A DNA stretch of 64,000 nucleotides. Source: an uncultured Candidatus Binatia bacterium. Lineage in GTDB: Bacteria; Desulfobacterota; Binatia; Bin18. This document shows, piece after piece, positions 7,316-52,028 of this stretch. The stretch covers positions 899,704 through 963,703 of the forward strand of contig CBDCPK010000005.1 in the NCBI GenBank assembly GCA_965220195.1, given 5' to 3'. Within the stretch, counting starts at the first letter, position 1; each line of letters begins with the position of its first letter. The position numbers and the translations under genes are program-made. The notes beneath the pieces are model-generated. The model did no database searches. It was not told the DNA's origin and saw nothing but the letters and a program-made list of their open reading frames with translations.

Positions 7316-7366
7316 AAGAGTAAACGTGTCAACAGCTTTGTATCTAGGGGGACACGTTTACTCTTT
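7316..7366. repeat. 51-bp palindromic MITE/REP-like element, copy 1 (variant arms)
   Basis: AAAGAGTAAACGTGTCaacagctttgtatctaggGGGACACGTTTACTCTTT, between coxM and mocA. Confidence 0.8.
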
Positions 7367-7379
7367 CAGGCGTTCTGTC

Positions 7380-7979
7380 TTATGTTTTTCGTCCGCCAAC
7401 CCACCGGGCGTACTCCTCAGGCGTATCAATATCGACGCGAATACCGGGGTCGTCGAGCGCAAGCTCACGCACCCGCTCCGGATCTTTGCGGACCACCACC
7501 TTTGCCCCTCTATCCAGCGGGGCCGCCAGAAGCTCTCCGTAGACACCCTTTGAGAACAGCACCGGATGGCCGCGGCGGCCCTGGTAGGACGCAATGACAA
7601 TGGGAAGGGGATCGGTCGCAAACGACGCCATGAGGGCCTGTATGGTCTCAGCTTGGATAAGGGGGTGATCAACCAGATTGACCACTGCGGCCTCGCTCTC
7701 GGGCGACAGGGTCTGAATCCCCACTTGCAGAGAAGAGAGTTGGCCCAGTCGATACTGCGGGTTTACCACGGTCCGCAGAGCCGGATGGTTCGGGACGACC
7801 GCCCGAATCGGTTCTTCGTGCTCATGCGCACCGAGTACAACGATGAGTTCATCGACTCCGGCGCTCAAAAAGCTGGTGCAAATGTTTTCAATAAAGGTTC
7901 GTCCCTGGTAGTCGAGCAGCGCTTTGGGAGATCCCATCCGCCGGGACTCACCAGCGGTCAGGATAATTCCAGAAATCAT
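7380..7979 (-). CDS. mocA: molybdenum cofactor cytidylyltransferase-like nucleotidyltransferase (MocA-like)
   Basis: The ORF track extends it to 8150, but the MocA-like sequence begins at MISGIILTAGESRRMGSPKALL (ATG at 7977-7979). GlmU-type nucleotidyltransferase fold. The call is consistent with its location in the Mo-enzyme cluster. Confidence 0.75.
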   Translation of the reverse strand: MISGIILTAGESRRMGSPKALLDYQGRTFIENICTSFLSAGVDELIVVLGAHEHEEPIRAVVPNHPALRTVVNPQYRLGQLSSLQVGIQTLSPESEAAVVNLVDHPLIQAETIQALMASFATDPLPIVIASYQGRRGHPVLFSKGVYGELLAAPLDRGAKVVVRKDPERVRELALDDPGIRVDIDTPEEYARWVGGRKT

Positions 7980-8007
7980 ACCGCGTGTTCGTTGAGAAAG
8001 AGCGGAC

Positions 8008-9168
8008 TTAGGGCGTAAATTTGAGCGGTCCGTCAGGCCGGACTTTGGCGGCCAGTGAGAGCGTCTCCGCCGGGCCCTTGCGCCGGGCGCGAACGATCTC
8101 GGCCGTAATGGCGACGGCAATCTCCGCCGGTGTTTCTGCCGCAATATCAAGCCCTAGGGGCGTATGTACGCGGGCGACGTCTTCAGGGCTATAGCCTTGT
8201 TCAACCAAGCGTTCGAGGGTCCTTTTTGAGCGCCGCCGGCTACCGATCATGCCAATATAGGCCGGATTTTTTTTGAGTGCGGCCTTGACCGAAGTCTCGT
8301 CCCACACATGGCCGCGTGTGACCACAACGACAAAGGTCTGCCGGTTGATATTCAGGCTGTTCAGGACATCCTCAAACGGTCCGACTCGAACCTCGGCGGC
8401 ACGAGGAAAGCGTTCCCGATTAGCAAAGGCCCAGCGATCGTCCACCACAACGGTATGAAAGCCGAGCATCGCCCCTATCTCGCACAGCGGCTGCGCAATA
8501 TGGCCGGCCCCAACAATGAGCAAGGTCTGCACCCCGGTTTGCACGTCAACGAAAACACGCGGCCAGTCCTCTTTTCGGACAAGCGCGTCTTCCTGGACTT
8601 CACCCTGGGGTGACACGGCAAATAGTTGGGGTTTGCCTGAAGAGACAGATGAGGAAAATGTCTCGACTGTTTCTGCGGTGATTGAGACGGCCGGAGTCAG
8701 AGACGCCCCGCCGTTTCCATCCTGGCCAAGAGACAGGCAGCTTTTTGTTCCGGGTTGGACTCCGCCGAGCGGGTCGAGTGCCGTGACCAGAGCCGCGGGC
8801 TGGTGAGCCCGCGTCGCCTCGGCCAAGGTCTGCGCTAATGCGCGGTGTTCCTCCGGCTGCCAGAGGTCAAGCGCGACATCCATCACCCCACCACAGACCT
8901 GGATCTCGTCCTGATCAAAGTCGCCGGTTAGATCGACCTGCACAATACGCGGGGGAAGTTTCTGGTCCAGCACCGGATAGGCCCGGCGGAGCACCTCTCC
9001 TTCGCCACAGCCCCCGCCAATAGTCCCAAACGGCTGTCCTTCGGGTGGCACGACCATTTTCGCTCCGACCTCACGCGGCACAGAGCCGCGCGTGCGGATA
9101 ATCGTCGCCAACACAAAAGGCTTGCCAGCCGCCAAAATTTCTTCAGCACGTTCCCAGAGATCTTCCAC
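8008..9168 (-). CDS. XdhC/CoxI family molybdenum hydroxylase maturation factor
   Basis: 386 aa. The N-terminal domain (ILAAGKPFVLATIIRTRGSVPREVGAKMVV...GTIGGGCGEGEV) and the C-terminal Rossmann-like domain are typical of XdhC. Confidence 0.8.
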   Translation of the reverse strand: MEDLWERAEEILAAGKPFVLATIIRTRGSVPREVGAKMVVPPEGQPFGTIGGGCGEGEVLRRAYPVLDQKLPPRIVQVDLTGDFDQDEIQVCGGVMDVALDLWQPEEHRALAQTLAEATRAHQPAALVTALDPLGGVQPGTKSCLSLGQDGNGGASLTPAVSITAETVETFSSSVSSGKPQLFAVSPQGEVQEDALVRKEDWPRVFVDVQTGVQTLLIVGAGHIAQPLCEIGAMLGFHTVVVDDRWAFANRERFPRAAEVRVGPFEDVLNSLNINRQTFVVVVTRGHVWDETSVKAALKKNPAYIGMIGSRRRSKRTLERLVEQGYSPEDVARVHTPLGLDIAAETPAEIAVAITAEIVRARRKGPAETLSLAAKVRPDGPLKFTP

Positions 9169-9229
9169 GGCACGAATCCTATCTGAACAGTTGGGGGGAA
9201 AGCAATGGAATACTGTCCGTTTTGCGAGC

Positions 9230-10240
9230 TTATTGGAAACGGGGCATAATCCGTTGAGCGAAGGTCTGCAACACCTGGGCCGGATCGCCGGTCAGCGGTC
9301 CAAGAAAAATTTTCTTGACCCCGGCCTCGGCTGCGCGCTCGACCTGATAGCGGCAGTCCTGGGGCGTCCCCGCGATGGCAAAGCGTTCGGCCAGATAATC
9401 CTTCAGCCCCAGTTCATCAACCATCCTGGCATGAAACCGTTCGGCGCCGAGCAGTTCGTGTTCATGCGGACGGTAGGCGGCCTTGAGTTTTTCAATCGCC
9501 TCCCACAGTTCGGCCGGAATACGCTTGCCCTCCAAGGTTCGCCGAAAGGCGTGGTTGGCACTCGCGGCCAGGGCCATGCGGATTTCATCCACTGCGGCCT
9601 GCGTGGTCTCGGCCATATTGGTCTTGGCAAAAAACCAGATATCCAAATCGTCAAGTTTCCGTCCGGCAGCCTTGGCCCCGTCCTCGATACGGTTATAGGC
9701 GTCCTGTACAACTGCGGGGCTCAGTCCGCTGCCCACGATCACCCCATCGGCTAACTCACCCGCCAGTTGCAGGATCTTTGGCCCCTCGGCACAGACGTAT
9801 AAAGGAACCGGTCTTTTCACCCAGACTTGGCGAACAGTTTTGCCCTGGAAGCGGGTTTCGCCAGTATAAAACCCTTTGATTGCTTCGAGCGCTTCGCGAA
9901 ACTCGGCGAGTCGAGCGGCCTTGAGACCCACGTTATACACGGCACTGTCACCTGTCCCAATGCCAAGAAAAGCGCGGCCGTCCGACAATTCGTTGATCGA
10001 GGCAATGGCCCCTGCCGTGACCGCGGGATGGCGGGTCAGGGGGTTGGTCACAAACGTTCCCATCCGCAGCCGCTGACTGTTCAGCGCACACTGGGTCAAG
10101 GTCACATAGCAGTCCGGCCATAGCCAGTGCGCATCCGGTACGCCTACCATTTCAAAGCCCCAGGCTTCAATCTGGCGCACCAGCCCCGGCAGGTCAGGAT
10201 AGCTATGCGCAAGGGGAATGGTGGCGAATTGGACGCTCAT
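9230..10240 (-). CDS. LLM class (luciferase-like) flavin/F420-dependent oxidoreductase
   Basis: Luciferase-like monooxygenase fold motifs. Likely start at MSVQFATIP (ATG at 10238-10240) rather than the ORF-track start at 10288. Confidence 0.8.
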   Translation of the reverse strand: MSVQFATIPLAHSYPDLPGLVRQIEAWGFEMVGVPDAHWLWPDCYVTLTQCALNSQRLRMGTFVTNPLTRHPAVTAGAIASINELSDGRAFLGIGTGDSAVYNVGLKAARLAEFREALEAIKGFYTGETRFQGKTVRQVWVKRPVPLYVCAEGPKILQLAGELADGVIVGSGLSPAVVQDAYNRIEDGAKAAGRKLDDLDIWFFAKTNMAETTQAAVDEIRMALAASANHAFRRTLEGKRIPAELWEAIEKLKAAYRPHEHELLGAERFHARMVDELGLKDYLAERFAIAGTPQDCRYQVERAAEAGVKKIFLGPLTGDPAQVLQTFAQRIMPRFQ

Positions 10241-10247
10241 CGGCTTA

Positions 10248-10299
10248 CAGCGTAAACGTGCCAACAGCTTTATACCAGAGGAGGACACGTTTACCTTTT
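10248..10299. repeat. palindromic MITE/REP-like element, copy 2 (degenerate)
   Basis: cagcGTAAACGTGcCaacagctttataccagaggaGGACACGTTTACcttt, between the LLM and lplA-like genes. Shares the caacagcttt spacer with copy 1. Confidence 0.7.
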
Positions 10300-10381
10300 C
10301 CTCTCTTCTGGGAGTAGCCTACCCGCTTCAGTTCAAGAGCACCATTGCTGCGGGTTCCCGTCTGACTTATGCTGCGTTCTT

Positions 10382-11452
10382 ATGCAGGTTCGTTTGCTCA
10401 CCCAATCCGATACGACCCCGCTCCAGAGCGTGGCAACGGACCAGTATTTTCTTCACACCGTCGTTGAGACACAGCTCCCAATCTTGCGCGTCTATACATA
10501 CCCGGAGGATGTGCTGCTGCTCGGTCGGTATCACGCTGCCGGCGCACTCGGCCCAGACCCAGGTCTGACAATCGCTCGGCGTCTGAGTGGCGGACGAGCC
10601 TTTCCGAGCGGTAACGGGTTTGTCCAGTTCTCGCTCATTGTCCCGCACCGTTCGTTCTTCTTCTCCGCCGACCCGCACCACATCGCGCCGTTTCAGATCC
10701 TCAATCGTTATGTTCGCGGGGTGCTGCGCGGCCTCAAAACCGGTGGGGTTGAAGTCTTCTATCCAGGACAAGATTTTCTAACGGTCCAGCGGCTGCCGGT
10801 TGGCTGGCACTCTTTTGTGACAGCAGACAGCGGAGCCGTGCTGTATGAAGGCGGCGTGTTTGTCCAACGGGATATGAGCCTCCTGCCCCGTTTTCTTGAC
10901 CGGGCCGACCCGCAGGGGACTCTTCCCTGTCAGATCTTTATGCCGGACCAGGTTTACAATTTGGATAAAGTCCTCGGGCGGTCTCTTGTGCCGGACCAAG
11001 TTGTTCATCTGCTCCGGAACGGCTTTACCCAGCAGTTCGGGCTGGAATGCCTCGACCGCGACCTGGACAAAAACGAGCGGGCATCCATTCTGGGAAAACA
11101 GGCTCAGTCCGACCTCGTGCCGAACAGCCGCCCGCTGCGATCCGACCTCCCCTATGCAGCAACGAGGCAAACTCCACTTGGAGAACTTCGAGTCCGCTTC
11201 TCTCTCACTCCCGAACGGACAATCGAGGCGATCCAGTTCTCGGGTGATTTTCTTGCCAACCCGGCAGGGATACAGGCGTTGGAGCACAATCTCGAAGGCT
11301 GTCCGCTGGAGAAAGCCTCACTTTGGCAGGTCATTGACCAGACGTTTCTTGAGCCGGAGCACTATCTGATTGGGGCCGGGAAGTTAGCCGACTTGCCCGG
11401 AGTGATGATAAGCGCCTCGAAGAGTAAACGTGTCCAGCATCTCTATACATAG
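10382..11452 (+). CDS. lipoate-protein ligase A-like protein (BPL/LPL catalytic domain)
   Basis: 356 aa, LplA-like N-terminus (PILRVYTYPEDVLLLGRY). The C-terminal residues ...SKSKRVQHLYT and the stop lie inside a 51-bp palindromic repeat copy. Confidence 0.6.
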   Translation: MQVRLLTQSDTTPLQSVATDQYFLHTVVETQLPILRVYTYPEDVLLLGRYHAAGALGPDPGLTIARRLSGGRAFPSGNGFVQFSLIVPHRSFFFSADPHHIAPFQILNRYVRGVLRGLKTGGVEVFYPGQDFLTVQRLPVGWHSFVTADSGAVLYEGGVFVQRDMSLLPRFLDRADPQGTLPCQIFMPDQVYNLDKVLGRSLVPDQVVHLLRNGFTQQFGLECLDRDLDKNERASILGKQAQSDLVPNSRPLRSDLPYAATRQTPLGELRVRFSLTPERTIEAIQFSGDFLANPAGIQALEHNLEGCPLEKASLWQVIDQTFLEPEHYLIGAGKLADLPGVMISASKSKRVQHLYT

Positions 11453-11474
11453 CTGGAGGACACGTTTACTCTTT
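11421..11474. repeat. palindromic MITE/REP-like element, copy 3
   Basis: AGAGTAAACGTGTCCAGCATctctatacatagcTGGAGGACACGTTTACTCTTTT, overlapping the lplA-like 3' end. Confidence 0.8.
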
Positions 11475-11501
11475 TCCCCAGTCCCGCCAATCGAGTAGGC
11501 T

Positions 11502-12386
11502 ATGGAGGACACTCAGAACAAGGCGCTCCAGCACGGTCAGATTGCAGCCGGGCTCCTCGCCGACAATGACCTCACGCGGCTTTCAGCGTTGGCTCTGCTT
11601 GAGTCGGAGAGAACACTAACGTCTCTCTCGGACGACGTGGTCCGTAACCTTCTCACGTGTCTGGGGCATCGTACCAAAAAAATACAACGTGGTGCGGCGA
11701 CCGCCCTCGTCCGCTTCGCCTCCCAACAGCCTGACATTATCGCGGCGCTGACACACAAGCTGACGCATCCGGACGCGCGGCTGCGCTGGACTGCGGCTTT
11801 TACCCTCTCCCAGCTTGAGCTGCCGAGCCCCTCGCCTCAAAGAGTAAACGTGTCCTCCAATCAGACACAACTGCTGGACACGTTTACTCTTCTTCCTGTT
11901 TTAATCGAAAACCTGGGACACCAGGAAAGCGACCTGCGCTGGGCCGCGGCAACTGCGGTCTTGCAGCTCGCCCGGCACTATTCTCAAGACGTTGTTCAGG
12001 CCATGATCCAACTCGTGTATAAGGGCAATGCCGTACAACGCCGTATGGCCCTCTACTGTCTCCGCGACCTGAAGCAAATGGATCACACAGCCCAGGACGC
12101 CTATCTCGCCAGCCTGCGTGACGAGGACCCTATGGTCCGCCTGGGCGGTTTGTCCTGTCTAGGTAAGCTCCGACTGAGGAGTGGAGCAATGCGAGCAGCG
12201 ATTCCCCGGCTTTTAGAACACGACCCGGACATGGGTGTCCGCCGTGCGGCTGCCGTAACCTGCGGGCAGATCGGCGACATGGACACACATATCATTGAGG
12301 CGTTGCAGCGAACAGCTCAAGCGGCTGACACCAGCCTCAGCAAAGCATCGGCCGGAGCACTCAAGAAACTGCTATACCGGACGTAA
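11502..12386 (+). CDS. HEAT repeat (PBS-lyase-like) protein with in-frame repeat-element insertion
   Basis: 294 aa with repeated DxRLRWTAAFTL / DLRWAAATAV / DPMVRLGGLSCL / DMGVRRAAAVTCG HEAT-like units. Residues QRVNVSSNQTQLLDTFTLL are encoded by a 51-bp repeat copy at 11841-11892. Confidence 0.7.
   Translation: MEDTQNKALQHGQIAAGLLADNDLTRLSALALLESERTLTSLSDDVVRNLLTCLGHRTKKIQRGAATALVRFASQQPDIIAALTHKLTHPDARLRWTAAFTLSQLELPSPSPQRVNVSSNQTQLLDTFTLLPVLIENLGHQESDLRWAAATAVLQLARHYSQDVVQAMIQLVYKGNAVQRRMALYCLRDLKQMDHTAQDAYLASLRDEDPMVRLGGLSCLGKLRLRSGAMRAAIPRLLEHDPDMGVRRAAAVTCGQIGDMDTHIIEALQRTAQAADTSLSKASAGALKKLLYRT
11841..11892. repeat. palindromic MITE/REP-like element, copy 4 (inverse orientation, inside HEAT-repeat CDS, in-frame)
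   Basis: AAGAGTAAACGTGTCCTCCAATcagacacaactGCTGGACACGTTTACTCTT. Confidence 0.8.
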
Positions 12387-12404
12387 AATGCGGGTGATGA
12401 AGTT

Positions 12405-12641
12405 TTACGACAGGTAACCCATCGGCTCGTTTTTCAGCAGTTCAACAATTACCTGCTGCCGGGTCTTGGGCCGTGTTTGGTTTTGTCCCTTCCCATCCAA
12501 GACAAACAGACCGCGCTTATACGTTCCACCGCCGTGCTGACACGTGTCCCACAACCGCTGCCACCGCTCGGGCGAGCGGACCCACTGTCTGAGAATTTTC
12601 TCTTGGTTGGTCATCCTTCCGTCTTGACTGAATTCTGACAT
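12405..12641 (-). CDS. hypothetical small protein
   Basis: 78-aa ORF in the gap between the HEAT gene and the MMPL array. No recognisable motif. Confidence 0.3.
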   Translation of the reverse strand: MSEFSQDGRMTNQEKILRQWVRSPERWQRLWDTCQHGGGTYKRGLFVLDGKGQNQTRPKTRQQVIVELLKNEPMGYLS

Positions 12642-15275: not shown

Positions 15276-15400
15276 GCTGACGATAGCTCCTTATATTTCT
15301 GACACTGCTGAGTAGCTGTGAGCAAGTAGAAACGAGAAAGTGAGTTCACCGGTATTAGGCGAATCGACAATTAACACAGGACTAGGGAGTAGGCTATTAC

Positions 15401-15720
15401 GCAGGCCAAGGCGCTGCTCACTGGCCGCTGCGCCCGCTCCGTCATTGCCGACAAAGCCGATGATAGTCAGGAACTCCTGGCCTTCATTAAAAACCAAGGG
15501 GCTACGCCAGTCATTCCTCCCCGGGCAGGGCGCCTAGCGCCCCGGTCCTATGACACGACTCTCTATAAGCACCGCAACTGGATTGAGCGCACCTTCAATC
15601 GGCTCAAACACTGCCGCCGCCTTGCCACCCGCTATGACCGCAAGACCGCCCCCTGCCTCGCCTTCTTACACCTCGCGGCCTTCGCCCTCTGGCAGTATTA
15701 CATGTCGATTCAGCCTAGGC
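15401..15720 (+). pseudogene. IS5-family DDE transposase, C-terminal fragment (no start codon)
   Basis: Frame translation ...ADKADDSQELLAFIKNQGATPVIPPRAGRLAPRSYDTTLYKHRNWIERTFNRLKHCRRLATRYDRKTAPCLAFLHLAAFALWQYY matches the conserved C-terminus of IS5/IS427-group transposases (NxIERxFxxLKxxRRIATRYDK). Only about 105 aa remain, with no upstream start. Confidence 0.5.
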
Positions 15721-18231: not shown

Positions 18232-18249
18232 AAGGGGCTACTCCCTAGT

Positions 18250-25774: not shown

Positions 25775-26569
25775 TCACATTAAGGAGAGCGTGACCGCCG
25801 CAGCTTCCGGGCTGAGCAGGGAAGGGGTCTTTTCCGGCAGCAGCATGAAGTCGTCATAGGCCGCTTCGGATATACTGGTCATTGTGTCAGAGTCTGAGAG
25901 CACGGCGATACCGCGTACCTTTTCCGGCTCAAAACCAAACAGGTCCTTATAGTCCTGGTAGAAATTCACGCTTTCCTGTCGCCACTCACCGGGCTCGGCC
26001 GGTCCGCGCTGTAAGACGACGACCTTGGCGCGCCAATAGACCGGGCTGTCGAAACGCGTGCCAACCGCGAGCGTCGAACTCCAGACGTATTTAATCGCCC
26101 GCGGCAGCAGGCGGCTCCCAAAAATTACGTAGACGGCCGCGGCCGAATCATTCGTTTTTTTCGCTCGTTCGTTGGCGCCGAGAGGGAGTTTGGTTGCGCG
26201 CCAGCGCCAGCGCAAAATGGGGTAGTCCTGAGGCTCACATATATGTTCTATGCCGATCTGGACATCCTGGTTGTTGGCATAGGCGTGCAGAAACCGATTG
26301 CCTTCTTCCTCGGCAATGCGGTAGACGGCCTGCGCGGTCGCTTCGCTGCCACGCACCTTCCAGCCCGACGGGAAGACACCGGCCGGGTATTGCTGAAAAG
26401 TCTCCTGAAAGGGCGTCGAGCCCTGGAGTGTCTGCGCCTGCCCATCGTCAGGGTCTACCGCTCTGGAAAGAGTAAACGTGTCCAGCATCTCACGGCTATT
26501 GGAGGATACGTTTACTCTTTGGGCCAAAACGCAGACGATCAGGAATGCCGTGAACCACACAACACGCAC
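25775..26569 (-). CDS. secreted hypothetical protein carrying an in-frame repeat-element insertion after the signal peptide
   Basis: Probable GTG start with a GGAGG RBS, giving VRVVWFTAFLIVCVLAQ (signal-peptide-like). Then RVNVSSNSREMLDTFTLS, encoded by the repeat at 26467-26520, then the mature domain (...AYANNQDVQIGIEH...). The ORF-track N-terminal extension to 26881 is unlikely. Confidence 0.45.
   Translation of the reverse strand: MRVVWFTAFLIVCVLAQRVNVSSNSREMLDTFTLSRAVDPDDGQAQTLQGSTPFQETFQQYPAGVFPSGWKVRGSEATAQAVYRIAEEEGNRFLHAYANNQDVQIGIEHICEPQDYPILRWRWRATKLPLGANERAKKTNDSAAAVYVIFGSRLLPRAIKYVWSSTLAVGTRFDSPVYWRAKVVVLQRGPAEPGEWRQESVNFYQDYKDLFGFEPEKVRGIAVLSDSDTMTSISEAAYDDFMLLPEKTPSLLSPEAAAVTLSLM
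26467..26520. repeat. palindromic MITE/REP-like element, copy 5 (inside secreted-protein CDS, in-frame)
   Basis: AAAGAGTAAACGTGTCCAGCATctcacggctATTGGAGGAtACGTTTACTCTTT. Confidence 0.8.
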
Positions 26570-32249: not shown

Positions 32250-32257
32250 CCGGCTAG

Positions 32258-32311
32258 AAAGAGTAAACGTGTTCAGCATCCCATGTCTATGGGAGAACAC
32301 GTTTACTCTTT
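32258..32311. repeat. palindromic MITE/REP-like element, copy 6
   Basis: AAAGAGTAAACGTGTtCAGCATcccatgtctATgGGAGaACACGTTTACTCTTT, overlapping the aminotransferase 3' end and upstream of the HAD gene. Confidence 0.8.
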
Positions 32312-35126: not shown

Positions 35127-36278
35127 ATGAGCCGGACTTCTCTTTTCGCTGGTCTCGTGTTTGGGGCAGGACTTGTCCTCCTGAGTGCGACCCAGGTTCT
35201 GACCCAAGAGAGAACGTTGCAAACCGAAGGCTGGCAGGGCAAGCGACCACAGCCCTCGGAGCAGCGGACCCCCGCTCCAGCCCCGCAGCGGCTAGCTCCC
35301 TCCGGGAAGCAGGTGCTCGAAATTCCCGTCCAGCCCCAACGCCCCGCCCTTCCGCCTCAGAGCCAGCAGGCGAGCCTCCCGCCTCGCCTCCAGCCTCTCC
35401 GCCCGCGTCCCAAACAACTGGTGACCGTTACCGTGACGGATCAAAATGGCGGCTACGTGCCCGGACTGCAAACGAACGATTTTGTGGTGTATGAAGGCGA
35501 CACGCGTCAGGAGATTACCTACTTCAATACCGGCGAGAATGAACCGGTCAGTCTGGGCTTAATCGTCGATTCGAGCGGCAGCATGCAGAATAAAATTGGG
35601 CACGCGCGCCACGCCCTGCAGCGGTTTATCGGCTCTATTAAGCCGCAGGACGAGGGCTTCCTGGTTGGATTCAGCGCACAGCCGTTTGTGCTGCAAGACT
35701 TCACGGACAGTCGGATGCTCCTGGCGCAGGGCATCGGCCTCCTCCGTCCACGGGGCGGAACCTCCCTATACGACGCGATTCTCACCGGTCTGCGGCGGAT
35801 GAGACAGGGTAAACACCGCAAGAAAGCCCTGATTGTGATGACCGACGGCATGGATACCGCCAGCCTATCCTCCCTCACGCAAACGATTGCCGTCTCGCAA
35901 CGCGCCGGCGTGCTGATTTACACGATTGGGATCGGCAATCCGCACCACCGTTACACGGCCGGTGGAAGCGGATTCGCTATCGGCCCATTCGGCGTTGTCG
36001 TTGGTGGGCATGATGAGCGTGTGGATTCACGAACGCTTCGGCGGTTGAGTGATGAAACCGGCGGACGCCACTTCCTGCTCAATACCAGGGATGTAGTCAA
36101 CAGCAGAACCGTGCTTGATACGGCGACCCAGACGATCTCGCGCGAACTCCGCTTCCAGTACAGTCTCGGCTACGTGTCCTCGGGAGGTGGCAATCAGTAC
36201 CGGAGTGTCCGCGTGGAAAGCACCCGGCCAGACGTCGTGATCCGCACCCAAAAGGGCTATGTGGCTGAGAGAGAGTAA
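35127..36278 (+). CDS. VWA domain-containing secreted protein with Pro/Gln-rich linker
   Basis: Signal peptide, PQ-rich low-complexity stretch, then vWA MIDAS (LIVDSSGSM...TSLYDA...MTDGMDT). The stop TAA is the first bases of the 51-bp repeat at 36270. Confidence 0.75.
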   Translation: MSRTSLFAGLVFGAGLVLLSATQVLTQERTLQTEGWQGKRPQPSEQRTPAPAPQRLAPSGKQVLEIPVQPQRPALPPQSQQASLPPRLQPLRPRPKQLVTVTVTDQNGGYVPGLQTNDFVVYEGDTRQEITYFNTGENEPVSLGLIVDSSGSMQNKIGHARHALQRFIGSIKPQDEGFLVGFSAQPFVLQDFTDSRMLLAQGIGLLRPRGGTSLYDAILTGLRRMRQGKHRKKALIVMTDGMDTASLSSLTQTIAVSQRAGVLIYTIGIGNPHHRYTAGGSGFAIGPFGVVVGGHDERVDSRTLRRLSDETGGRHFLLNTRDVVNSRTVLDTATQTISRELRFQYSLGYVSSGGGNQYRSVRVESTRPDVVIRTQKGYVAERE

Positions 36279-36322
36279 ACGTGTCCTCCAATGAGCGTGG
36301 ATAATGCTGGACACGTTCGCTC
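36270..36322. repeat. palindromic MITE/REP-like element, copy 7 (inverse orientation; right arm degenerate)
   Basis: GAGAGTAAACGTGTCCTCCAATgagcgtggataATGCTGGACACGTTcgCTCc. Supplies the VWA gene stop codon. Confidence 0.7.
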
Positions 36323-36354
36323 CTTGTAGCACGGCAGCCGCCTGCCCGGCCCTG

Positions 36355-42509: not shown

Positions 42510-42537
42510 GTTTTCCTCTGCTTCTCTGCTGTATCTA

Positions 42538-46281: not shown

Positions 46282-49200
46282 TCACGACACCTTCCGCTTT
46301 GTTGACCAGCTCTCGGTTGGAGTATCCGCCGCAGCCTTGAGATACCGGGCGCTCATCTCGGCCAGGGCAGCCAGGATGATATTCCGCCGCTTTTCCCCGC
46401 TGTGCTCTAGGGCTTCCTCCACCTGATCGATCAACACATCCACCTTCTCCCGTTCCAGGTCGGTAATATCAAACTCGTCGTGGACCGGCGTGGGACGGCC
46501 GCCCATACTCACCACCACGGCCATAGCATGTCGTTTGTCCGGCCGTCCCTTTACATGGGCAAAGACCTCCGCGCGGATAAACTGCTGCGCCAGTTGCGCC
46601 AACTCAACCGCTGCCCGGTCGATGTCGGAGTCTACCCAGTTTTGGGCCGGCTTGTTGGTTGCCATACTCGCCAGACTCTCCATGTCCTCGTTGTTACCCT
46701 GAAACTGTCCGAGCCGGACGATGAAAGCTTCCAGGCGATGATCGCCGCCCAGTTGGCGGATGTTTTCGGCACGAGCGCGCAGTTCGGCCAACATTGGGGG
46801 TGAGGTATTCGGCACTTCTAGCTCGGCCAACAGCGTTTCCCGTAGACGATGCAGCATTGAGGGATAGGCTTCGCGTAGCTCTCTCAGCCCCTCACGCATG
46901 TGGTCTACGATTCGACGCAGATCGTCGCCCTCGTGGATATCGGCACCGTTACTCAGCAGGTTAGGGATATCGTCAAAAATCAGCTTGTTCGGGTCATTGG
47001 CCTGCTTGAATAACTGCCGTACCTGTTTCGCATTAGCGGAAAGCTGTTGTGTACGGAATACCCACGGCGACAGCCGATCATAGATTGCAACCAGACCCCT
47101 AGCTACATCAATGGGCTCCAGGTCAGTCAGTGCATTCTCCTCGTCCAGCTCGCGGACAACGGCGGCCATATCGGAGAGGAGCCGACGCGATGTATCCGAA
47201 AGGTCCATCCAACGTAGCTGAATGTCGGTCGGGTCTTTGACCAGGTAATCCATGTCCAGGTCGGACATACGCGCCTGAAAGAGACCCTGACGATAAAAGG
47301 CCAGATCGTGACGCTTCGACAGGATGAATGCGACCAACAGCACCGGCAACAGCCCGTCTTTGATGCCGAACGATGCCTGACGCCAGATATCGTATATCTC
47401 GACTGCTGATACCGTGCGGTACGCGTTGTCCTCAAGGAACCTAGTTGCCCTCCACCAAGCCGGTCCGAGGTTGCGGGTATCTTCGTCGTTGGCCGTGGGC
47501 GCAACAAAGGTCCAGCCCAGGATCGTTCTTCGGTATAGCCCGGTCGCCTCCAGTAGCGATGCAAACAGTCCGCCCTCAGCAGGGAAACCCTCGATACCGA
47601 GACGCTCTTCGCCTTCGTTGAAAATCATTCTCCGTAGCAGCGCATTCCGCGCGGCAGCCGCGTTACTCGACGGTTTGCTACGGTTCAGGAGTTCGTTATG
47701 CAGACGCGGCGACTCCTTAAATTGCGCGTCCGCCAGGACAGAGGCTAGGCTATTGAGTTCGGTCCGCGTGAGCGGCTTGGTATCGTGCTGTTTCCGATAC
47801 CACAGAGCGTTATTGGACGCGCGATCCAACTCACTTTCCAGCCGCCCCTGGAGGAGCGCTATGCGGGCTTCAACCTCGCGCCGTGCTACTTGGTCGCCTT
47901 GCAGCTCCGGCGTCTCGTCGCTCACCTGCTCCAAGGCTAACAGCTCCCGCGCAAGGGACGTGATATCCCAAGCGTCCTGAGGCAGGCCAACTACAATATC
48001 CCAGTCCTGAGACCGATCTACAGCACGACGACATATATGCTCGATCTCCTCCCCCAACTCGCCCTGGGTCGGAATCGCTAGGAAGAAGGCCCCAATGGCT
48101 CCGTGCCGGGGGGTGTAGTTGGCTACAGCCTGTTCGATCTCGGCCAATGGCATGAGAGCTACGTCGAACCAGCGCAGCGTACCTGTCGCGTGGTAATGAC
48201 GCTTGGCCACAATAGGCTGAAGGTCAGCAAGAGCGTTGAGCCTGGCAAAGTCTACCTCGCTGATGGTCGTCAAAGCCTGCTCTACCGCGTGCTCAATGTC
48301 GAAGTCACTACCCTCAAAGACAGCATAGGCGTTATTAAACTTGCGGAAGATAATCAGCGCCTGGTCTTGCAGCTTCGCTAGAGCTTGTCCGATCTCTTCC
48401 GAACCGCAGTCGGGCAGCGCATGTTTCAGAAGATCAAGGCTTGCCACCAAACCGGAGCGGTCTTTCAGTAAATCCACGAGCGCGATGGTCTTGAGCAGCC
48501 TCAGATGCAGTTCCTCGCCGCCTATGGCTTCGCACCGTTCCAGGACATCGGCAGCCAAGGCCCAGCGGTGGCCGTCGGGTGAGGCCATGATGGAAGGTTC
48601 GAGGTTAATGCGCAGATAGTCCCACAGACGGTCCGGCGCATAGAGGCCGCCATCTCCTGCGGATCGCAGAAAATCTTGAAAGCCCTGTGGCTCAGTGGAG
48701 TTGAGAAACCCAAAAATGCTGCGCTGGTTCTGACCGAATCGACGCCGCGACAGGGGGCCTAGCAAGCAGGCGACTATGGGATGAAGCGGCCAACAGTCTT
48801 CCAGCATCTGCGCTAGATGTGAAGACGTATGTCTGCGCAGTACGGCCACGCTTTCGGCCAAGGCGCTCGGCTTCTTCGGCTCACGGTTGCTCTCGATAGC
48901 GCGGCTAAGGAGGTCAATCTGCTCGTCCCCACCAATATTGACAGCAAGGTCCACAAACCGGCCTTGAATCTTGGCCCACTCGTCGCGCATCTCACGCGCC
49001 AAACGATGGGCGTACTCTTCAAACGCCTGGTGGAGGATACCGACGACAATGAGTCGCTTGTTGCTACGCGAAGCCAATTCAGCGAGTTGCTGAAAGAAGT
49101 AAATATCGGTCCCGTCGTAGGCAGCCGCCTCCAGAAACTTGCCCATCTCGTCAATGAATACCAACAGCCCGCCACCAGCGCGTGGATACTGCGCCGCGAG

Positions 49201-49668
49201 ATTTTGGAGAGACTCCAGTGCGAGCGGCTCGCTCCAGGTCTTTGGGGTCTTACCGGTCAAAAGTCTGGTCGCTTCTATAGCTTCACCGACCACCTGGGCT
49301 GGGCGGTCACGCCGGCCGACAACAGGCAGGACGCGCCAGCCCTTAGTACGGGGCGGTAGCGCGTCCCAGATAGGATCAGCCGTATTTTCACCAAGGACCG
49401 AGGCCGCATAATACCTGAGATCGCCGTCTCCGTTCAGGAGGGCGCTGAATGCCACGGCCAGGCTCGACTTGCCACTGCCATAGGGGCCGGTCCAGGTAAA
49501 AGCGCCTTGCCCGTTCTCGGCAATGTGGCGCGCCATGGTCTTGAGGATATCGGCGGAGGATGGGGGGCAGATGAACCCTTTCAGAGCCGCCGGGTCGGCG
49601 AGGTCCGTGTCAATACGGATAGCACGCTGGAAGCGTCGGGCGATATGGACACGATCAGCTAGGGCCAT
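46282..49668 (-). CDS. large P-loop NTPase (1128 aa), candidate ATPase of a Dnd/Ssp- or BREX-like defence/modification cassette
   Basis: Walker A GPYGSGKSS (aa about 62-70) and Walker B-like LLVFIDEMG (aa about 178-186). The remaining roughly 900 aa look helical or repetitive. Its start ATG overlaps the stop of the upstream DUF4007-like gene (TAATG). Confidence 0.8.
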   Translation of the reverse strand: MALADRVHIARRFQRAIRIDTDLADPAALKGFICPPSSADILKTMARHIAENGQGAFTWTGPYGSGKSSLAVAFSALLNGDGDLRYYAASVLGENTADPIWDALPPRTKGWRVLPVVGRRDRPAQVVGEAIEATRLLTGKTPKTWSEPLALESLQNLAAQYPRAGGGLLVFIDEMGKFLEAAAYDGTDIYFFQQLAELASRSNKRLIVVGILHQAFEEYAHRLAREMRDEWAKIQGRFVDLAVNIGGDEQIDLLSRAIESNREPKKPSALAESVAVLRRHTSSHLAQMLEDCWPLHPIVACLLGPLSRRRFGQNQRSIFGFLNSTEPQGFQDFLRSAGDGGLYAPDRLWDYLRINLEPSIMASPDGHRWALAADVLERCEAIGGEELHLRLLKTIALVDLLKDRSGLVASLDLLKHALPDCGSEEIGQALAKLQDQALIIFRKFNNAYAVFEGSDFDIEHAVEQALTTISEVDFARLNALADLQPIVAKRHYHATGTLRWFDVALMPLAEIEQAVANYTPRHGAIGAFFLAIPTQGELGEEIEHICRRAVDRSQDWDIVVGLPQDAWDITSLARELLALEQVSDETPELQGDQVARREVEARIALLQGRLESELDRASNNALWYRKQHDTKPLTRTELNSLASVLADAQFKESPRLHNELLNRSKPSSNAAAARNALLRRMIFNEGEERLGIEGFPAEGGLFASLLEATGLYRRTILGWTFVAPTANDEDTRNLGPAWWRATRFLEDNAYRTVSAVEIYDIWRQASFGIKDGLLPVLLVAFILSKRHDLAFYRQGLFQARMSDLDMDYLVKDPTDIQLRWMDLSDTSRRLLSDMAAVVRELDEENALTDLEPIDVARGLVAIYDRLSPWVFRTQQLSANAKQVRQLFKQANDPNKLIFDDIPNLLSNGADIHEGDDLRRIVDHMREGLRELREAYPSMLHRLRETLLAELEVPNTSPPMLAELRARAENIRQLGGDHRLEAFIVRLGQFQGNNEDMESLASMATNKPAQNWVDSDIDRAAVELAQLAQQFIRAEVFAHVKGRPDKRHAMAVVVSMGGRPTPVHDEFDITDLEREKVDVLIDQVEEALEHSGEKRRNIILAALAEMSARYLKAAADTPTESWSTKRKVS

Positions 49669-50630
49669 TACGCGGCATCCCTCTTGTTATTCACGGCGTA
49701 GTCCAGATTGATGAAGTCAAGCGCAGCCTCGACGGACAACTCACGCTTGCGGATGAGTTGCTTCAGACCGGCCGTCTCCGACCACGTGTAGATGCCTTCG
49801 CTCGCCTCTTCCAGGTCAGTAAGCATATCCACCACACCGTTTTCGTCCAGTAGAAAGACCCGACCGGGTGACCCAGGCTCATAGGCAAGGGTCTCAAAGG
49901 ATAGCGTCTGGGCGGTTTTGGAAAACCGATTCCAGAAGTCCGTTACCGCATAGCAGAACACGCCAGCGCCGAGAGACGGCTTCTGCCCATGGACGAACCT
50001 GAACCGCTCGCTCTTGCCCACTCGTTTAACCAGACCAAGCTCGGTTAAGGGTGACTCCAGGGCGTCTTCCTGGCTGGCTTGTTTTGATGAGCGCTGCGCA
50101 ACATAGGTCCGTACAAAACAGGTCACGTCTCTTCCGATGGTGGCCTTGGAGGCACGATCCCAAGTGCACTCCTCGGCGAGTTTGCCAAGGGCTTTGACCA
50201 AGGTTTCACGCTCGAAGAACAGAGCCGGATAATGGCTGAAGGTCCAGAACCACGTAGTCTTATTTGGACGGCCACACAGATGCCAATGGATCAACCACGA
50301 CGTAGCCGGGTCTTCCATATAGGGATCAAGTCCGTCTGTGCCGAACAAGCGCTGTCCAAGAGCAGTGGTTACGAGCCCGTTCTTGTCGGTGGCCTCCTCA
50401 ATGATGCCTGTCGCCGTAGCCCAATGGCGCATGGAGGAAACCATGTTCTTACCAACGCCGAATCGGGCGATGGCATCTTCGCCAGAGAAAACCGATCTGT
50501 TGTCGTCCTGGTCTTCGGCTGCTTGGATGGCGTCAAAAGCCTTTTTTAACCAGCCATAGCGGAGCGGAAAAGTTTCGTGTCCCGAAAACTGCGGCTTGTA
50601 GCTGTCCTCAAAAAGTGGTCCGCGTGCCAT
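49668..50630 (-). CDS. DUF4007-like protein (SspB-like by motif recollection)
   Basis: 320 aa. The N-terminal FSGHETFPLRYGWLKK is the motif I associate with DUF4007, the domain of the phosphorothioation nickase SspB. Translationally coupled to the P-loop gene. Confidence 0.6.
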   Translation of the reverse strand: MARGPLFEDSYKPQFSGHETFPLRYGWLKKAFDAIQAAEDQDDNRSVFSGEDAIARFGVGKNMVSSMRHWATATGIIEEATDKNGLVTTALGQRLFGTDGLDPYMEDPATSWLIHWHLCGRPNKTTWFWTFSHYPALFFERETLVKALGKLAEECTWDRASKATIGRDVTCFVRTYVAQRSSKQASQEDALESPLTELGLVKRVGKSERFRFVHGQKPSLGAGVFCYAVTDFWNRFSKTAQTLSFETLAYEPGSPGRVFLLDENGVVDMLTDLEEASEGIYTWSETAGLKQLIRKRELSVEAALDFINLDYAVNNKRDAA

Positions 50631-50758
50631 CTGCCCTCTAGCTACTGGGTGGAGCCTTCAGATCATGTGTAGCTCATATCCTATACCCTATGTTAGGGTC
50701 AGGCAAAAGCACGCAAGCTGAGGTTCCACCCTCAGATTCCATATATAATTGAGAAACA
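50631..50758. promoter_or_regulatory. divergent promoter region between DUF4007-like operon and cysteine desulfurase gene
   Basis: 128-bp AT-richer intergenic region between divergently oriented genes, with TATA-rich stretches (tccatatataattgagaaacaATG). Confidence 0.3.
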
Positions 50759-51946
50759 ATGAAAATCGGCAAAACCCTCTATTTCGACCATCAGGCCACA
50801 ACGCCGGTCGATGCGCGTGTTATGGCCGCCATGACTCCCTATTTCGTGGAATCATTCGGCAATCCTCATTCCTCGGATCATAGCCTTGGTTGGGAATCCG
50901 CGAGTGCCGTGGAAAAAGCCGCCGCGCGCGTGACGCGGCTTATCGGCGCGGACGCCGACGAAATCACCTTCACCTCGGGAGCAACCGAGTCAAATAACTT
51001 AGCCCTGCTCGGCTTGGGCCGCCGGGCTGCCGGGGGCAAGCGCCGCCGCATCTTGGTCAGCGCCATCGAACATAAATGCGTGTTGGCCGCTGCCAGAGTT
51101 TTACAAGAGCAGTTCGGTTTCGCCGTAGAACTGATCCCGGTTGACCATCAAGGTTTCGTGAAAATGGCGGCTCTGGAAGAAGCGTTAGACGATGATGTTC
51201 TCGTCGTGTCGGTCATGGCGGTCAATAACGAAATCGGGACGATTCAAGATATTGGGCGAATATCCGAACTAGTAAGAGGCTACGGGGCCGTTTTTCATTG
51301 TGATGCAGCCCAAGCGCCCCTTGCCATGAATATGGAATCGATGGCGAGCCAGGCCGATATGCTGAGCCTTTCGGCGCACAAGATGTATGGCCCGAAAGGC
51401 ATTGGAGCCATCTATATTGCGCGTGAATTGCAGGACCAAATCGAGCCACTGATCTATGGCGGCGGACAGCAGAATGGTCTACGCTCGGGCACGGTTCCGG
51501 TTCCGCTCTGCGTTGGGATGGGTGCAGCAGCAGATATCTTTACCGCTGCCGACACGGAAGAGAAGCGGGCGCAGTTATGCCGCCGTCGCGATACGTTTGT
51601 TGAAATGCTCAACCGTCTACCGTGGCCGATAACGTTGAACGGCCCTCAAGGGCAGGCCCGCCACCCCGGCAATGCCAATATCCGGTTCGCTGGATTTTCA
51701 GCGGAGGACATCCTCAGCACTTTACAGCCGCACCTCGCGGCATCCACCGGTTCTGCCTGCACCTCGGGTATCCCCGAGCCGTCGCACGTTCTGAGAGCTA
51801 TCGGGTTGAGTGGTGAGGAGGCGGAATCCTCGATTCGTTTCAGCCTCGGCTTTGACACCACCGACGCAGACCTTGAAGAGGCGGTGCGGCTAATTACGGA
51901 GGCATTGACGCGGTTGGCGCGGGCCGGGCTGTGTGCTGGGTCGTAG
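50759..51946 (+). CDS. cysteine desulfurase (IscS/NifS/DndA-like class V aminotransferase)
   Basis: 395 aa. LYFDHQATTPVD start, PLP lysine region SLSAHKMYGPKGIGA, and the catalytic Cys in the C-terminal loop (ASTGSACTSG). Confidence 0.85.
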   Translation: MKIGKTLYFDHQATTPVDARVMAAMTPYFVESFGNPHSSDHSLGWESASAVEKAAARVTRLIGADADEITFTSGATESNNLALLGLGRRAAGGKRRRILVSAIEHKCVLAAARVLQEQFGFAVELIPVDHQGFVKMAALEEALDDDVLVVSVMAVNNEIGTIQDIGRISELVRGYGAVFHCDAAQAPLAMNMESMASQADMLSLSAHKMYGPKGIGAIYIARELQDQIEPLIYGGGQQNGLRSGTVPVPLCVGMGAAADIFTAADTEEKRAQLCRRRDTFVEMLNRLPWPITLNGPQGQARHPGNANIRFAGFSAEDILSTLQPHLAASTGSACTSGIPEPSHVLRAIGLSGEEAESSIRFSLGFDTTDADLEEAVRLITEALTRLARAGLCAGS

Positions 51947-51974
51947 AAAACCCATCCCGCCGCTGACGCGGCAC

Positions 51975-52028
51975 AAAGAGAGAACGTGTCCAGCATCACA
52001 TGTGTATTGGAGGACACGTTTCCTCTTT
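51975..52028. repeat. palindromic MITE/REP-like element, copy 8
   Basis: AAAGAGAgAACGTGTCCAGCATcacatgtgtATTGGAGGACACGTTTcCTCTTT, 30 bp after the cysteine desulfurase stop. Confidence 0.8.

Follow-up and report, generated by a model that had tools for sequence, protein, structure and literature searches.

A dispersed 54-nt hairpin repeat of Candidatus Binatia, very probably mobile, with exactly filled and empty sites and loops inverted in place

The 64-kb stretch of Candidatus Binatia DNA that we analysed, called the window here, contains eight copies of a short palindromic repeat. An earlier note on this DNA had reported at least eight; a covariance model trained on 70 members of the family and run with the filters off found exactly these eight and no more. 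The half-site GTAAACGTGTCC, with at most one mismatch, matched 13 times in the window compared with 0.17 matches expected from shuffled sequence. In keeping with the earlier note, the copies are not pieces of a duplicated gene. The window also holds an insertion sequence (52993-54292) with a DDE transposase gene (53019-54194), and a tRNA-Thr that was its sole match to Rfam; around copy 5, Rfam returned chance matches to miRNA models alone (E > 1). The copies and their neighbouring genes are as follows, with covariance-model scores in bits.

Copy 1, 7315..7366, plus strand: 52 nt, CAACAGCTTT loop subfamily, 55.7 bits; intergenic, with the stop of a MobA-like NTP-transferase gene (7380-7979) on one side and the start of a CO-dehydrogenase flavoprotein gene (6353-7222) on the other; both genes are on the minus strand and were assigned by Pfam.
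Copy 2, 10247..10299, plus strand: a decayed copy of 53 nt whose arms depart from the consensus at 6 positions, 32.2 bits; in the spacer that separates two divergent genes, luciferase-like monooxygenase (9230-10240, minus strand) and LplA-like (10382-11452, plus strand).
Copy 3, 11419..11474, plus strand: 56 nt; the LplA-like gene originally ended ~30 nt beyond the insertion point.
Copy 4, 11839..11892, minus strand: 54 nt; 18 codons in frame (QRVNVSSNQTQLLDTFTL) between HEAT repeats in the gene at 11502-12386 (plus strand).
Copy 5, 26467..26520, plus strand: 54 nt; 18 codons in frame (RVNVSSNSREMLDTFTLS) in a DUF3047 gene (25775-26569, minus strand), directly following the N-terminal hydrophobic segment of the protein.
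Copy 6, 32258..32311, plus strand: 54 nt, compensated arm variant GTGTTC / GAACAC, 76.1 bits; fills the space separating two minus-strand genes, one for a class-V aminotransferase (32287-33534) and one for a HAD hydrolase (31542-32279).
Copy 7, 36270..36325, minus strand: 56 nt, 3′ arm decayed, 48.9 bits; its TAA (element positions 7-9; 36276-36278) is the stop of a VWA-domain gene (35313-36278, plus strand), which is convergent with an ORF at 36355-36738 (minus strand).
Copy 8, 51975..52028, plus strand: 54 nt, arm variant GAGAGAACG / CGTTTCCTC, 70.9 bits; intergenic, 28 nt 3′ of sspA (50759-51946, plus strand), a cysteine-desulfurase gene.

The consensus unit is 54 nt long (AAAGAGTAAACGTGTCC-AGCATCTcatgtcTATTGGAGG-ACACGTTTACTCTTT) and the window copies range from 52 to 56 nt, which corrects the 51-54 bp given earlier. 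Its edges are sharp, with information content falling from ~2 bits to ~0 at either end in a logo of 99 copies. The arms, previously put at about 20 bp, are 17 bp each and perfectly inverted in the consensus (AAAGAGTAAACGTGTCC and GGACACGTTTACTCTTT), and the stem has no bulges or extrahelical bases. The loop is 20 nt long and asymmetric. A variable spacer of 9-13 bp had been described in its place; a variable centre does exist but it measures just 6-8 nt, and the outer parts of the loop (AGCATCT... and ...TATTGGAGG) are conserved. The distinct loop start CAACAGCTTT that had been noticed in copies 1 and 2 marks a subfamily that is also present in other genomes. Every window copy folds into a hairpin (RNA dG of −15 to −32 kcal/mol, z of −2.6 to −8.2) and the consensus folded as DNA gives −17.3 kcal/mol, with z of −7.7 and −9.1 for the two strands. 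The two arms covary: 97.6% of cells are paired, both-side changes occur in 9 of 16 pairs, and 34 cells have double changes compared with 4.3 in shuffles.

Outside the window we recovered ~200 further copies, some from metagenomes and the others from 19 genomes of Candidatus Binatia; the lineage-wide tally is 157 + 55 copies. The 54-nt hairpin is carried by 19 or more species-level genomes of Binatia and, in this genome scan, they were its sole hosts; zero copies were recovered from phages. The earlier view of a lineage-specific and interspersed palindrome therefore holds genome-wide. The family accounts for 179 of the 229 perfect hairpins with a stem of at least 12 bp in all the DNA sampled. 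There are ~155 copies in 856 kb of Binatia loci and eight in the window. The density is about one copy per 8-15 kb of sampled DNA, which would amount to several hundred copies per genome of 4-5 Mb. In the literature that we searched, no such repeats were described for the uncultured class Binatia.

Most copies are intergenic, as the earlier note had stated, with 84 of 107 independent sites outside genes and 23 within them. The upstream gene's stop codon is held by 31 of 157 copies, and ~43% of copies lie on a stop codon or at most 30 nt past one. In the window the stop codon of the upstream gene is inside copies 3, 6 and 7. As read from the sequence, the loop of copy 6 contains both the aminotransferase stop (32287-32289) and candidate ATG starts of the hydrolase gene. 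Independent sites are found 14 times in divergent and 6 times in convergent spacers, indicating that the 3′ ends of genes are not a specific target. Orientation relative to the host gene is biased 59:25 after collapsing orthologues. The earlier remark on a multiple-of-3 length and open frames holds up for the copies inside genes: copies 4 and 5 are exact 18-codon inserts, and at least eight further in-gene insertions were verified against empty orthologous ORFs. Such copies survive because 54 nt make 18 codons with open frames. The positional pattern as a whole is that expected from random insertion followed by selection.

Presence/absence polymorphism between relatives, which had been suggested as a check, was found, and sites are precisely filled or empty. 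At least 20 orthologous pairs are exactly filled in one member and empty in the other, with a gap of 0, no target-site duplication and no common target motif; for most of the empty intergenic sites, the polarity (gain or loss) is not assignable. The flanks have an information content of ~0 and thus no conserved tetra- or pentanucleotide target. Exactly empty counterparts include those of copies 1, 3, 4 and 5. Copy 1 is missing from the same junction in L026, where the DNA is ~97% identical. The site of copy 2 is also filled in L026, and in L149 it holds a copy in the flipped orientation. Copy 3 is full in L148, represented by its left arm alone in L026, and absent in L149, where the LplA reading frame continues to a stop 3 nt upstream of the HEAT gene start. 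The insertion of copy 3 means that the LplA-like gene of the window now ends at a TAG inside the loop (11450-11452). The site of copy 5 is exactly empty in L041 and filled in the orthologues in L014 and L051.

The HEAT gene offers the longest history of a single site. Pfam HEAT matches flank the copy 4 insert on both sides. Homologues with the insert are 294 aa long and those without it 276 aa, and the DNA junction of the insert is exact in L148 and L149. A tree of the orthologues shows one gain followed by about nine separate exact losses of 18 codons. The insertion is ancient, and the old copy has arm changes without compensation. A single old gain with about nine exact losses favours seamless excision, while exchange of alleles between lineages, and not recurrent excision, could account for part of the scatter of filled and empty alleles on the tree.

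A second kind of change takes place without movement of the element. In 18 of 71 orthologous pairs, and at 9 of 34 site groups, species with the same flanks differ in having the loop, and nothing else, reverse-complemented. In one such pair the flanks are 98% identical and the loop is exactly reverse-complemented. Both orientations do occur, with copies 4 and 7 opposite to the other six. The earlier note had read the swapping of sides between copies as showing insertion both ways; since the loop flips in place, the two orientations are no proof of this.

Taken together, these observations leave us confident that the 54-nt hairpin is a mobile palindromic repeat family. The reading that we favour, and think probable, is that the family is specific to Candidatus Binatia and consists of non-autonomous mobile DNA hairpins, of the REPIN or Rickettsia-palindromic-element type, which a putative enzyme mobilises in trans. 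It is a new family, but one of a familiar kind, that of small selfish repeats.

How such an element might move is suggested by its form. It would move as a folded single strand with both ends meeting at the foot of the stem, where an enzyme encoded elsewhere in the genome would cut and rejoin it. By analogy with what has been proposed for REPINs, the likeliest candidate would be a single-copy HUH tyrosine (RAYT or IS200-like) transposase. We give somewhat less than even weight to the tentative proposal of a Y1/HUH enzyme as the driver of the element. A crude search (phmmer with two approximate query sequences, plus the HUH..Y motif) detected no Y1/RAYT or IS200-like ORF, neither in the window nor across the 1.15 Mb of DNA that surrounds ~210 copies. 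Loop flips and paired arm changes could arise from strand switching or repair in the hairpin during replication. Selection would then purge the copies that break genes, and the survivors would be intergenic copies, copies at last codons, where the TAA of the element is often the stop, and in-frame copies in tolerant protein loops. A bolder version, which we regard as a long shot, is that the mover belongs to an enzyme class new to transposition, or is a domesticated, target-free, single-copy HUH enzyme, cutting at a fully paired hairpin foot, with the loop flip an ongoing population-level switch and the copies in genes and at gene ends reversible cassettes. If true, these cassettes would alter protein loops, C-termini and stop/start junctions at hundreds of Binatia loci.

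Copies might instead be gained, lost and flipped without a dedicated transposase, if the replication and repair machinery of the host worked on the hairpin or cruciform. The routes would include template switching, slippage at the stem foot, nuclease cleavage of hairpins or junctions, and recombination over short patches with other copies. This is consistent with the search near ~210 copies, in which no transposase of any type was found, and loop inversion with paired arm changes is exactly what strand switching in a palindrome produces. Polymerase bypass of the hairpin would fit with exact loss at the foot of the stem, and CGTC-type REPs are likewise reported to lack a dedicated transposase (PMC3733652). 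We nonetheless consider this explanation unlikely, because, although it can account for loss and flipping, it does not account for the base-exact arrival of the 54-nt unit at more than 100 unrelated, non-homologous sites, and slippage predicts ragged ends whereas most junctions are exact.

The concentration of ~43% of copies on or within 30 nt past a stop codon, a stem that is strong in either orientation and the 59:25 orientation bias could also indicate a host signal under selection, such as a bidirectional terminator, an mRNA-stabilising hairpin or a protein site, with mobility secondary or past. Such roles have been credited to REPs (PMC3733652). But divergent spacers hold more independent sites than convergent ones, 23 sites are in genes, and individual copies are dispensable in close relatives. 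Intrinsic terminators have a G+C-rich stem and a U-tract after genes; the tail of the Binatia hairpin is only CTCTTT, and a terminator scan reported an inner sub-hairpin of copy 4 and did not pick the full hairpin. Pairing is lost in old copies, with ~2.6 arm mismatches per 34 positions in an unbiased subset, a decay more in line with selfish DNA than with a host signal. An apparent extra conservation of the arms proved to be an ascertainment artefact. A selected host function is thus quite improbable as the primary explanation, and the observations can be accounted for with no role as an RNA or a protein-binding site, which the earlier note had offered as a possibility.

The earlier note had also used the label MITE. 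A classical MITE would be a deletion derivative of a DDE insertion sequence, moved as double-stranded DNA through its 17-bp terminal inverted repeats. Terminal inverted repeats, small size, interspersion and occasional in-frame fusions are typical MITE traits (PMC10969869), and a DDE transposase gene does lie in the window. The label does not hold, however, as none of the exact filled/empty pairs has a target-site duplication and no parent insertion sequence with the same ends was found. The 18-bp ends of the insertion sequence in the window are unrelated to the hairpin arms, and ~0.9-1 Mb of sampled loci contained no solo arms or longer elements with the family ends. Seamless loss that restores the reading frame is also unlike what DDE cut-and-paste leaves behind. 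We therefore regard a MITE origin as very improbable. Hardly credible are sites of folded-single-strand recombination (integron attC-like) or invertase switches: the folded arms do show AAC...GTT when read from the sequence and the loops invert, yet AGTAAAC / GTTTACT mismatches the core RYYYAAC / GTTRRRY, extrahelical bases are missing from the stem, the copies lie dispersed in both orientations rather than in an array beside an integrase, an invertible segment of 20 bp is below the length for synapsis by Hin/Gin-type invertases, and no recombinase gene recurs beside the copies.

To our knowledge, few mobile DNAs are as poorly understood as REPs, REPINs and Rickettsia palindromic elements (RPEs), and their mode of insertion is not established even in model bacteria. 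The favoured Binatia-specific mobile hairpin is an unusually clean case, as a single perfect hairpin with base-exact borders makes up the entire element. Orthologous sites that are filled, empty or flipped are available by the dozen in closed long-read genomes from one lineage. Together with a site history of one gain and many losses, this allows insertion, seamless excision and loop inversion to be measured directly. It is now also feasible to look for an enzyme whose occurrence co-varies with that of the repeat. The repeat can also mark contigs as coming from Binatia; it gives rise to annotation errors, through shifted starts and stops and 18-residue protein inserts, and it is likely to cause assembly breaks in short-read MAGs.

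Several known systems share part of this behaviour. Parvovirus termini are flip/flop hairpins in which the loop is found in either orientation. In plastid DNA (for example PMC6342102, PMC7393888), non-coding hairpin-loop micro-inversions resemble the Binatia flips in that the loop, which lies between short inverted repeats, occurs either way in close relatives and the changes are recurrent and homoplastic. These plastid and viral flips are single-locus mutations or replication intermediates, whereas those in Binatia affect a dispersed bacterial repeat family. IS200/IS605 elements and their miniatures resemble the Binatia hairpin in that they insert and excise seamlessly, leave no duplication, depend on DNA hairpins and have a strand or orientation bias. 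They differ in having a fixed 4-5-nt target at the left end and a separate subterminal hairpin at each end, while in Binatia one hairpin is the whole element and its flanks have no conserved target. Bacterial MITEs such as Correia, ERIC and RUP (PMC10969869) are likewise small and non-autonomous, with terminal inverted repeats, inter- and intragenic copies and effects at gene ends, but they have target-site duplications and usually a traceable insertion sequence with the same ends, and the Binatia hairpin has neither.

Rickettsia palindromic elements (PMC10969869) are closer, as they insert in frame into unrelated genes, adding a short peptide and leaving the protein intact, and have no known transposase. 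By description they are set apart as sequence families of ~100-150 bp, unrelated to the 54-nt Binatia unit, in an obligate intracellular alphaproteobacterium. Just about one-fifth of the Binatia sites are intragenic, and repeated exact loss and loop flips are documented in Binatia. Tagged REPs (PMC3733652) are, like the Binatia hairpin, high in copy number, interspersed and mostly extragenic. The REP part of the earlier label nevertheless fails for this tagged type: the ends AAAGAG...CTCTTT are fully paired in the 99-copy logo with no unpaired GTAG/CGTC tag, and the unit of 54 nt and stem of 17 bp exceed the 20-40 bp and 5-13 bp of tagged REPs, with the 20-nt loop compared with 2-20 nt. Compared with a REP arm, the Binatia arm is not itself a palindrome. 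In REPIN-RAYT systems a cognate RAYT (HUH/Y1) gene is in the same genome and is usually flanked by the repeat (PMC3116915). With the REPINs and REPs of Pseudomonas and enterobacteria (PMC3116915, PMC3733652), the Binatia family shares a high-copy, short interspersed hairpin whose conserved inverted arms enclose a spacer, together with compensatory arm changes, events of excision, occasional intragenic copies and no target-site duplication, as well as long vertical persistence in a lineage combined with polymorphism of the sites.

The window contains eight copies of a palindromic repeat. The half-site GTAAACGTGTCC, allowing up to one mismatch, matched 13 times in the window, whereas dinucleotide-preserving shuffles predict 0.17 matches. 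The 13 matches assemble into eight hairpins (copies 1-4 at 7315-7366, 10247-10299, 11419-11474 and 11839-11892; copies 5-8 at 26467-26520, 32258-32311, 36270-36325 and 51975-52028), which is where an earlier note made from the sequence had placed them. A covariance model built from 70 family members and run over the window without filters recovered the same eight, with no further match above noise. All eight are long hairpins with RNA folding energies of -15 to -32 kcal/mol (z = -2.6 to -8.2). Folded as single-stranded DNA, the consensus gave -17.3 kcal/mol on both strands (z = -7.7 and -9.1).

We extracted 157 orientable copies from the window and the genome-scan loci. Counted position by position, the 99 copies with the modal length gave the consensus AAAGAGTAAACGTGTCC AGCATCT catgtc TATTGGAGG ACACGTTTACTCTTT; a search pattern for the family would be AAAGAGTAAACGTGT-N16-34-ACACGTTTACTCTTT with mismatches allowed. 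In these 99 copies the information content is about 2 bits in the arms and falls to about zero within one base beyond either end. Thus, the element is a 54-mer with sharp boundaries, and 63% of copies are exactly 54 nt long. It has 17-bp arms around a 20-nt loop, the ends of which are conserved yet non-complementary, so every copy has an orientation. Across 150 aligned copies, 97.6% of the stem cells are paired, 9 of 16 stem pairs have changes on both sides, and 34 cells carry double changes versus 4.3 in shuffles; slid controls gave far lower values. The family accounts for 179 of the 229 perfect hairpins with a stem of at least 12 bp in all fetched DNA.

With the pattern GTAAACGTGT-N18-40-ACACGTTTAC, a search through prokaryotic genomes, one for each species, returned at least 112 stretches. 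Among the matches listed, about 100 belong to 19 Candidatus Binatia assemblies, many of them closed 4-5 Mb chromosomes and one labeled Thermodesulfobacteriota; a metagenome scan added 32 loci with 55 copies. Matches in other genomes (Bacteroidota, Desulfovibrio and others) lack the family ends and loop and were set aside as chance or unrelated palindromes. The density of eight copies per 64 kb in the window and about one further copy per 11-15 kb in fetched blocks implies several hundred copies per genome, an extrapolation rather than a count. No Rfam family resembles the element. A phage vector finds no support in a scan of viral contigs, which gave three chance matches without the family flanks or loop. 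Window positions 4361-12442, about 8 kb, are approximately 97% identical to a contig of the Binatia MAG jk18x40bins.50 (comparison locus L026), and some other parts are 80-99% identical to other Binatia genomes. MAGs with jk18x names occur in an Ircinia sponge microbiome study that recovered Binatia MAGs (PMC9531527), so this MAG is probably from that sponge series.

Several other hairpins among the comparison loci (L-numbers) resemble the element. L059, from Danxiaibacter flavus (Bacteroidota), has two 41-nt perfect palindromes (2417-2457 and 3667-3707), one GTAAACGTGTCCTGCATTTT.AAAATGCAGGACACGTTTAC and the other a compensated variant, which flank a SAM-methyltransferase gene and not a transposase. 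They have 16 of 17 bases in common with the Binatia arm and loop start (GTAAACGTGTCCAGCAT), which could be chance or could mean that another phylum has a distantly related family of hairpins. A metagenome contig (LXNJ01002517.1, L116) carries at 5400-5451 a hairpin with arms AAGAGGAAACCTGCCC / GGGCAGGTTTCCTCTT, which keeps the ends and layout of the family but has changes on both sides of the inner stem and another loop; its sequence suggests that diverged sister subfamilies exist. The site at which L012 and L020 have the 54-nt element is occupied in L007 (1896-1949) and L099 (6687-6734) by a hairpin that matches it in size and layout but is unrelated. This hairpin has 16-bp arms AAAAAATATCACCGCC / GGCGGTGATATTTTTT and a loop of about 16-22 nt, and it adjoins another hairpin, which is terminator-like. 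Possible explanations are replacement of the element, the existence of a second family, and a common preference for that spacer.

We compared the 200-bp flanks of each copy with all other loci. One class of sites is filled in several species with flank identities of 81-99%. The other comprises at least 20 filled/empty pairs in which the flanks meet exactly at the position of the 54-mer, with no duplicated bases and no common target sequence. Copy 1 is missing in L026, which retains only the left arm of copy 3; copy 3 is missing in a more distant relative and copy 5 in L041. Near window position 24981, two relatives have a copy where the window has none. The family is thus polymorphic between relatives and is not confined to the window. 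Together, the polymorphism and the genome-wide spread rule out the alternative, raised in the earlier note, that the copies are parts of one duplicated gene. In L103 (OZ242288.1, 3133-5659) there are three in-gene copies within 2.5 kb, of an arm variant without TAA (GAGGRAACG / CGTTYCCTC). All three are exactly missing from L053, the flanks of which are 90-98% identical; this would mean a local burst within one subfamily or, in the relative, three excisions.

When orthologous copies are counted once, 107 independent sites remain, of which 23 fall within predicted genes. Copy 5 is an exact 18-codon insertion in a DUF3047 protein, C-terminal to its N-terminal hydrophobic segment; the protein reads ...FTAFLIVCVLAQ-RVNVSSNSREMLDTFTLS-RAVDPDD... 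in the window, L014 and L051, and ...FTAFLLACVLAP-RAADPDD... in L041, the empty form. Copy 4 lies within a HEAT-repeat gene, and Pfam finds HEAT repeats on either side of it. A search with this protein found close homologues of two lengths, 294 and 276 residues, which when aligned differ by exactly QRVNVSSNQTQLLDTFTL, between ...LPSPSP and LPVLIENLG.... Contigs encoding two of the 276-residue forms have the exact DNA junction CTCGCC|TCTTCC. We built a neighbor-joining tree of 44 orthologues with the insert columns left out. The outgroups lack the insert, 28 sequences have it with loop-encoded residues that are always identical, and the 276-residue forms are dispersed inside the filled clade, one of them being 96% identical to the window protein. 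Because parsimony requires 10 changes, the tree points to one gain followed by about nine exact losses. The simplest reading is that an old insertion was excised repeatedly and seamlessly; some of the pattern could come from allele exchange between lineages.

There are at least eight further in-gene events, in which long open reading frames run through filled and empty orthologues and arm lengths match. At one site with three 55-nt copies, a 1-nt flank loss offsets the extra base for a net gain of 54 nt. In-gene copies in the phase where the arm TAA would be a stop have GGA or GAA instead, and the other arm is changed to match. Elsewhere the element supplies or adjoins the end of a gene: the stop codon of the upstream gene is inside the element in 31 of 157 copies (24 of them at its own TAA; copies 3, 6 and 7 in the window hold such a stop), and another 36 of the 157 start no more than 30 nt after a stop. 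The repeat can also shift gene calls, for example in L149 (ENA contig ctg328674, 1747-2997). Here an LplA-like gene is called as 416 residues versus 356 in the window; it has its own in-gene copy at 2035-2084 that is missing from the window, and the call starts inside the orthologue of copy 2.

The loop often differs between orthologous filled sites in a specific way. Where flanks and arms are identical, one loop is often the exact reverse complement of the other. The loop is flipped in 18 of 71 unique orthologous pairs, and both orientations occur in 9 of 34 orthologous site groups. For example, L064 and L065 have flanks that are 98% identical and loops that are CCAGCATCTCCATGCTGTTGGAGG and its exact reverse complement; L067 and L093 have a rare loop variant in common with L002 in the opposite orientation; and the copy 2 orthologue in L149 is flipped. 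Since flipped orthologues have rare loop variants in common, these flips are inversions at the site and not independent insertions. The earlier note had taken the two orientations as proof of insertion both ways. This does not hold, since loops invert in place. A 20-bp segment is below the length needed for a recombinase synapse, so the likely route of the flip is a switch of strands inside the hairpin as it is replicated or repaired, which would also yield the paired arm changes. The same flipping of hairpin loops is described for plastid spacers (e.g. PMC6342102, PMC7393888). We found loop inversion nowhere mentioned in the REPIN paper PMC3116915.

Of 84 independent sites that are informative, 59 have the AGCAT...GGAGG strand antisense to the neighboring or host gene (p = 3e-4; raw counts 78:34). 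This bias tracks local GC skew about as well as gene direction, which makes replication-strand and transcription origins inseparable. For in-gene copies, part of it is dictated by open frames; read from the sequence, a flipped HEAT copy would gain a TGA stop. By spacer type, 61 independent sites lie between tandem genes, 14 between divergent and 6 between convergent genes. This distribution is unlike that of a terminator, and a terminator scan did not recognize the full hairpin. The distribution fits insertion that has little preference for particular sites, with selection acting afterwards. Arms are 94-97% identical versus 86% for the largely coding flanks, a comparison that is biased because loci were fetched by exact arm matches and that we rejected as a sign of purifying selection on arms in place. 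In an unbiased subset, consisting of sites whose locus was fetched for another copy, genuine family members differ from the arm consensus at a mean of about 2.6 of 34 positions, and some copies are truncated. The ancient HEAT copy has uncompensated changes, such as F to S in ...DTFTL with no partner change. Given this decay, we find no good evidence that individual copies are maintained for the sake of a host function.

We looked for an enzyme that could move the element. The other features of the window are as follows.

Window features outside the hairpin family
46282-49668, minus strand, SspC (1337 bits)
49668-50630, minus strand, SspB (DUF4007)
50759-51946, plus strand, SspA, cysteine desulfurase
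52993-54292, insertion sequence with DDE_Tnp_1, the only transposase of the window (53019-54194, minus strand)
52993-53010 and 54275-54292, ends of this insertion sequence, 18-bp imperfect inverted repeats GCTGACAAGGGTAGGTAA / TTACCTACCCCTCTGAGC
57928-58001, minus strand, tRNA-Thr (anticodon CGT), the sole Rfam/ARAGORN match in the window

The Ssp genes (46282-51946) are DNA-phosphorothioation defense genes; neither SspD nor SspE was identified among the neighbors tested. Copy 8 lies 28 nt 3' of sspA, and the highest G+C of the window (0.645) is at 52001-54000. On the minus strand, 12750-20772 contains three paralogous genes in a row, each encoding about 840 residues, the first tested being MMPL/RND-like. 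Judged from matches in L051, two are about 80% identical in DNA to the third. A markedly positive AT skew, +0.10 to +0.15, sets this stretch apart from the rest of the window.

The DDE_Tnp_1 insertion sequence is not the parent, as its end repeats are unrelated to the hairpin family, and no solo arms pointing to a longer parent element were found in the sampled loci. All open reading frames of the window and 144 loci were searched with phmmer and scanned for HUH...Y motifs. The phmmer queries were E. coli RayT and IS608 TnpA, and detection was crude. Neither the window nor 1.15 Mb surrounding about 210 copies yielded an HUH/Y1 (RAYT or IS200-like) reading frame. We estimate that, at about 300 copies per genome, this sample would have caught a RAYT flanked by canonical copies with a probability of roughly 0.75; the negative result is weak evidence, mildly informative at best, and not proof of absence. 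A protein-database search with the element-encoded peptides concatenated as one query gave two word-sharing candidates and no hits and was uninformative. An origin driven purely by the host can account for the loss and flipping of copies, but it cannot account for an identical 54-mer arriving at unrelated sites.

The family is real, abundant, lineage-specific small palindromic mobile DNA. New are its host lineage and its one-hairpin, base-exact architecture, as well as the repeated exact loss documented for one gene and the frequent in-place inversion of the loop. The whole element is one hairpin with ends that meet at the stem foot, it inserts exactly and without duplication, its excision is seamless, and the family shows long vertical persistence with turnover. 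These properties agree with what is known or proposed for single-strand HUH transposition and for REPIN-RAYT systems (PMC3116915, PMC3733652). Unlike IS200/IS605, the Binatia element has no fixed flanking target, and unlike tagged REPs it has no GTAG or CGTC tag and is of a different size. It resembles REPINs in its hairpin unit, covariation, excision and persistence, and Rickettsia palindromic elements in its in-frame insertion into genes (PMC10969869). By their defining features, it is a member of neither.
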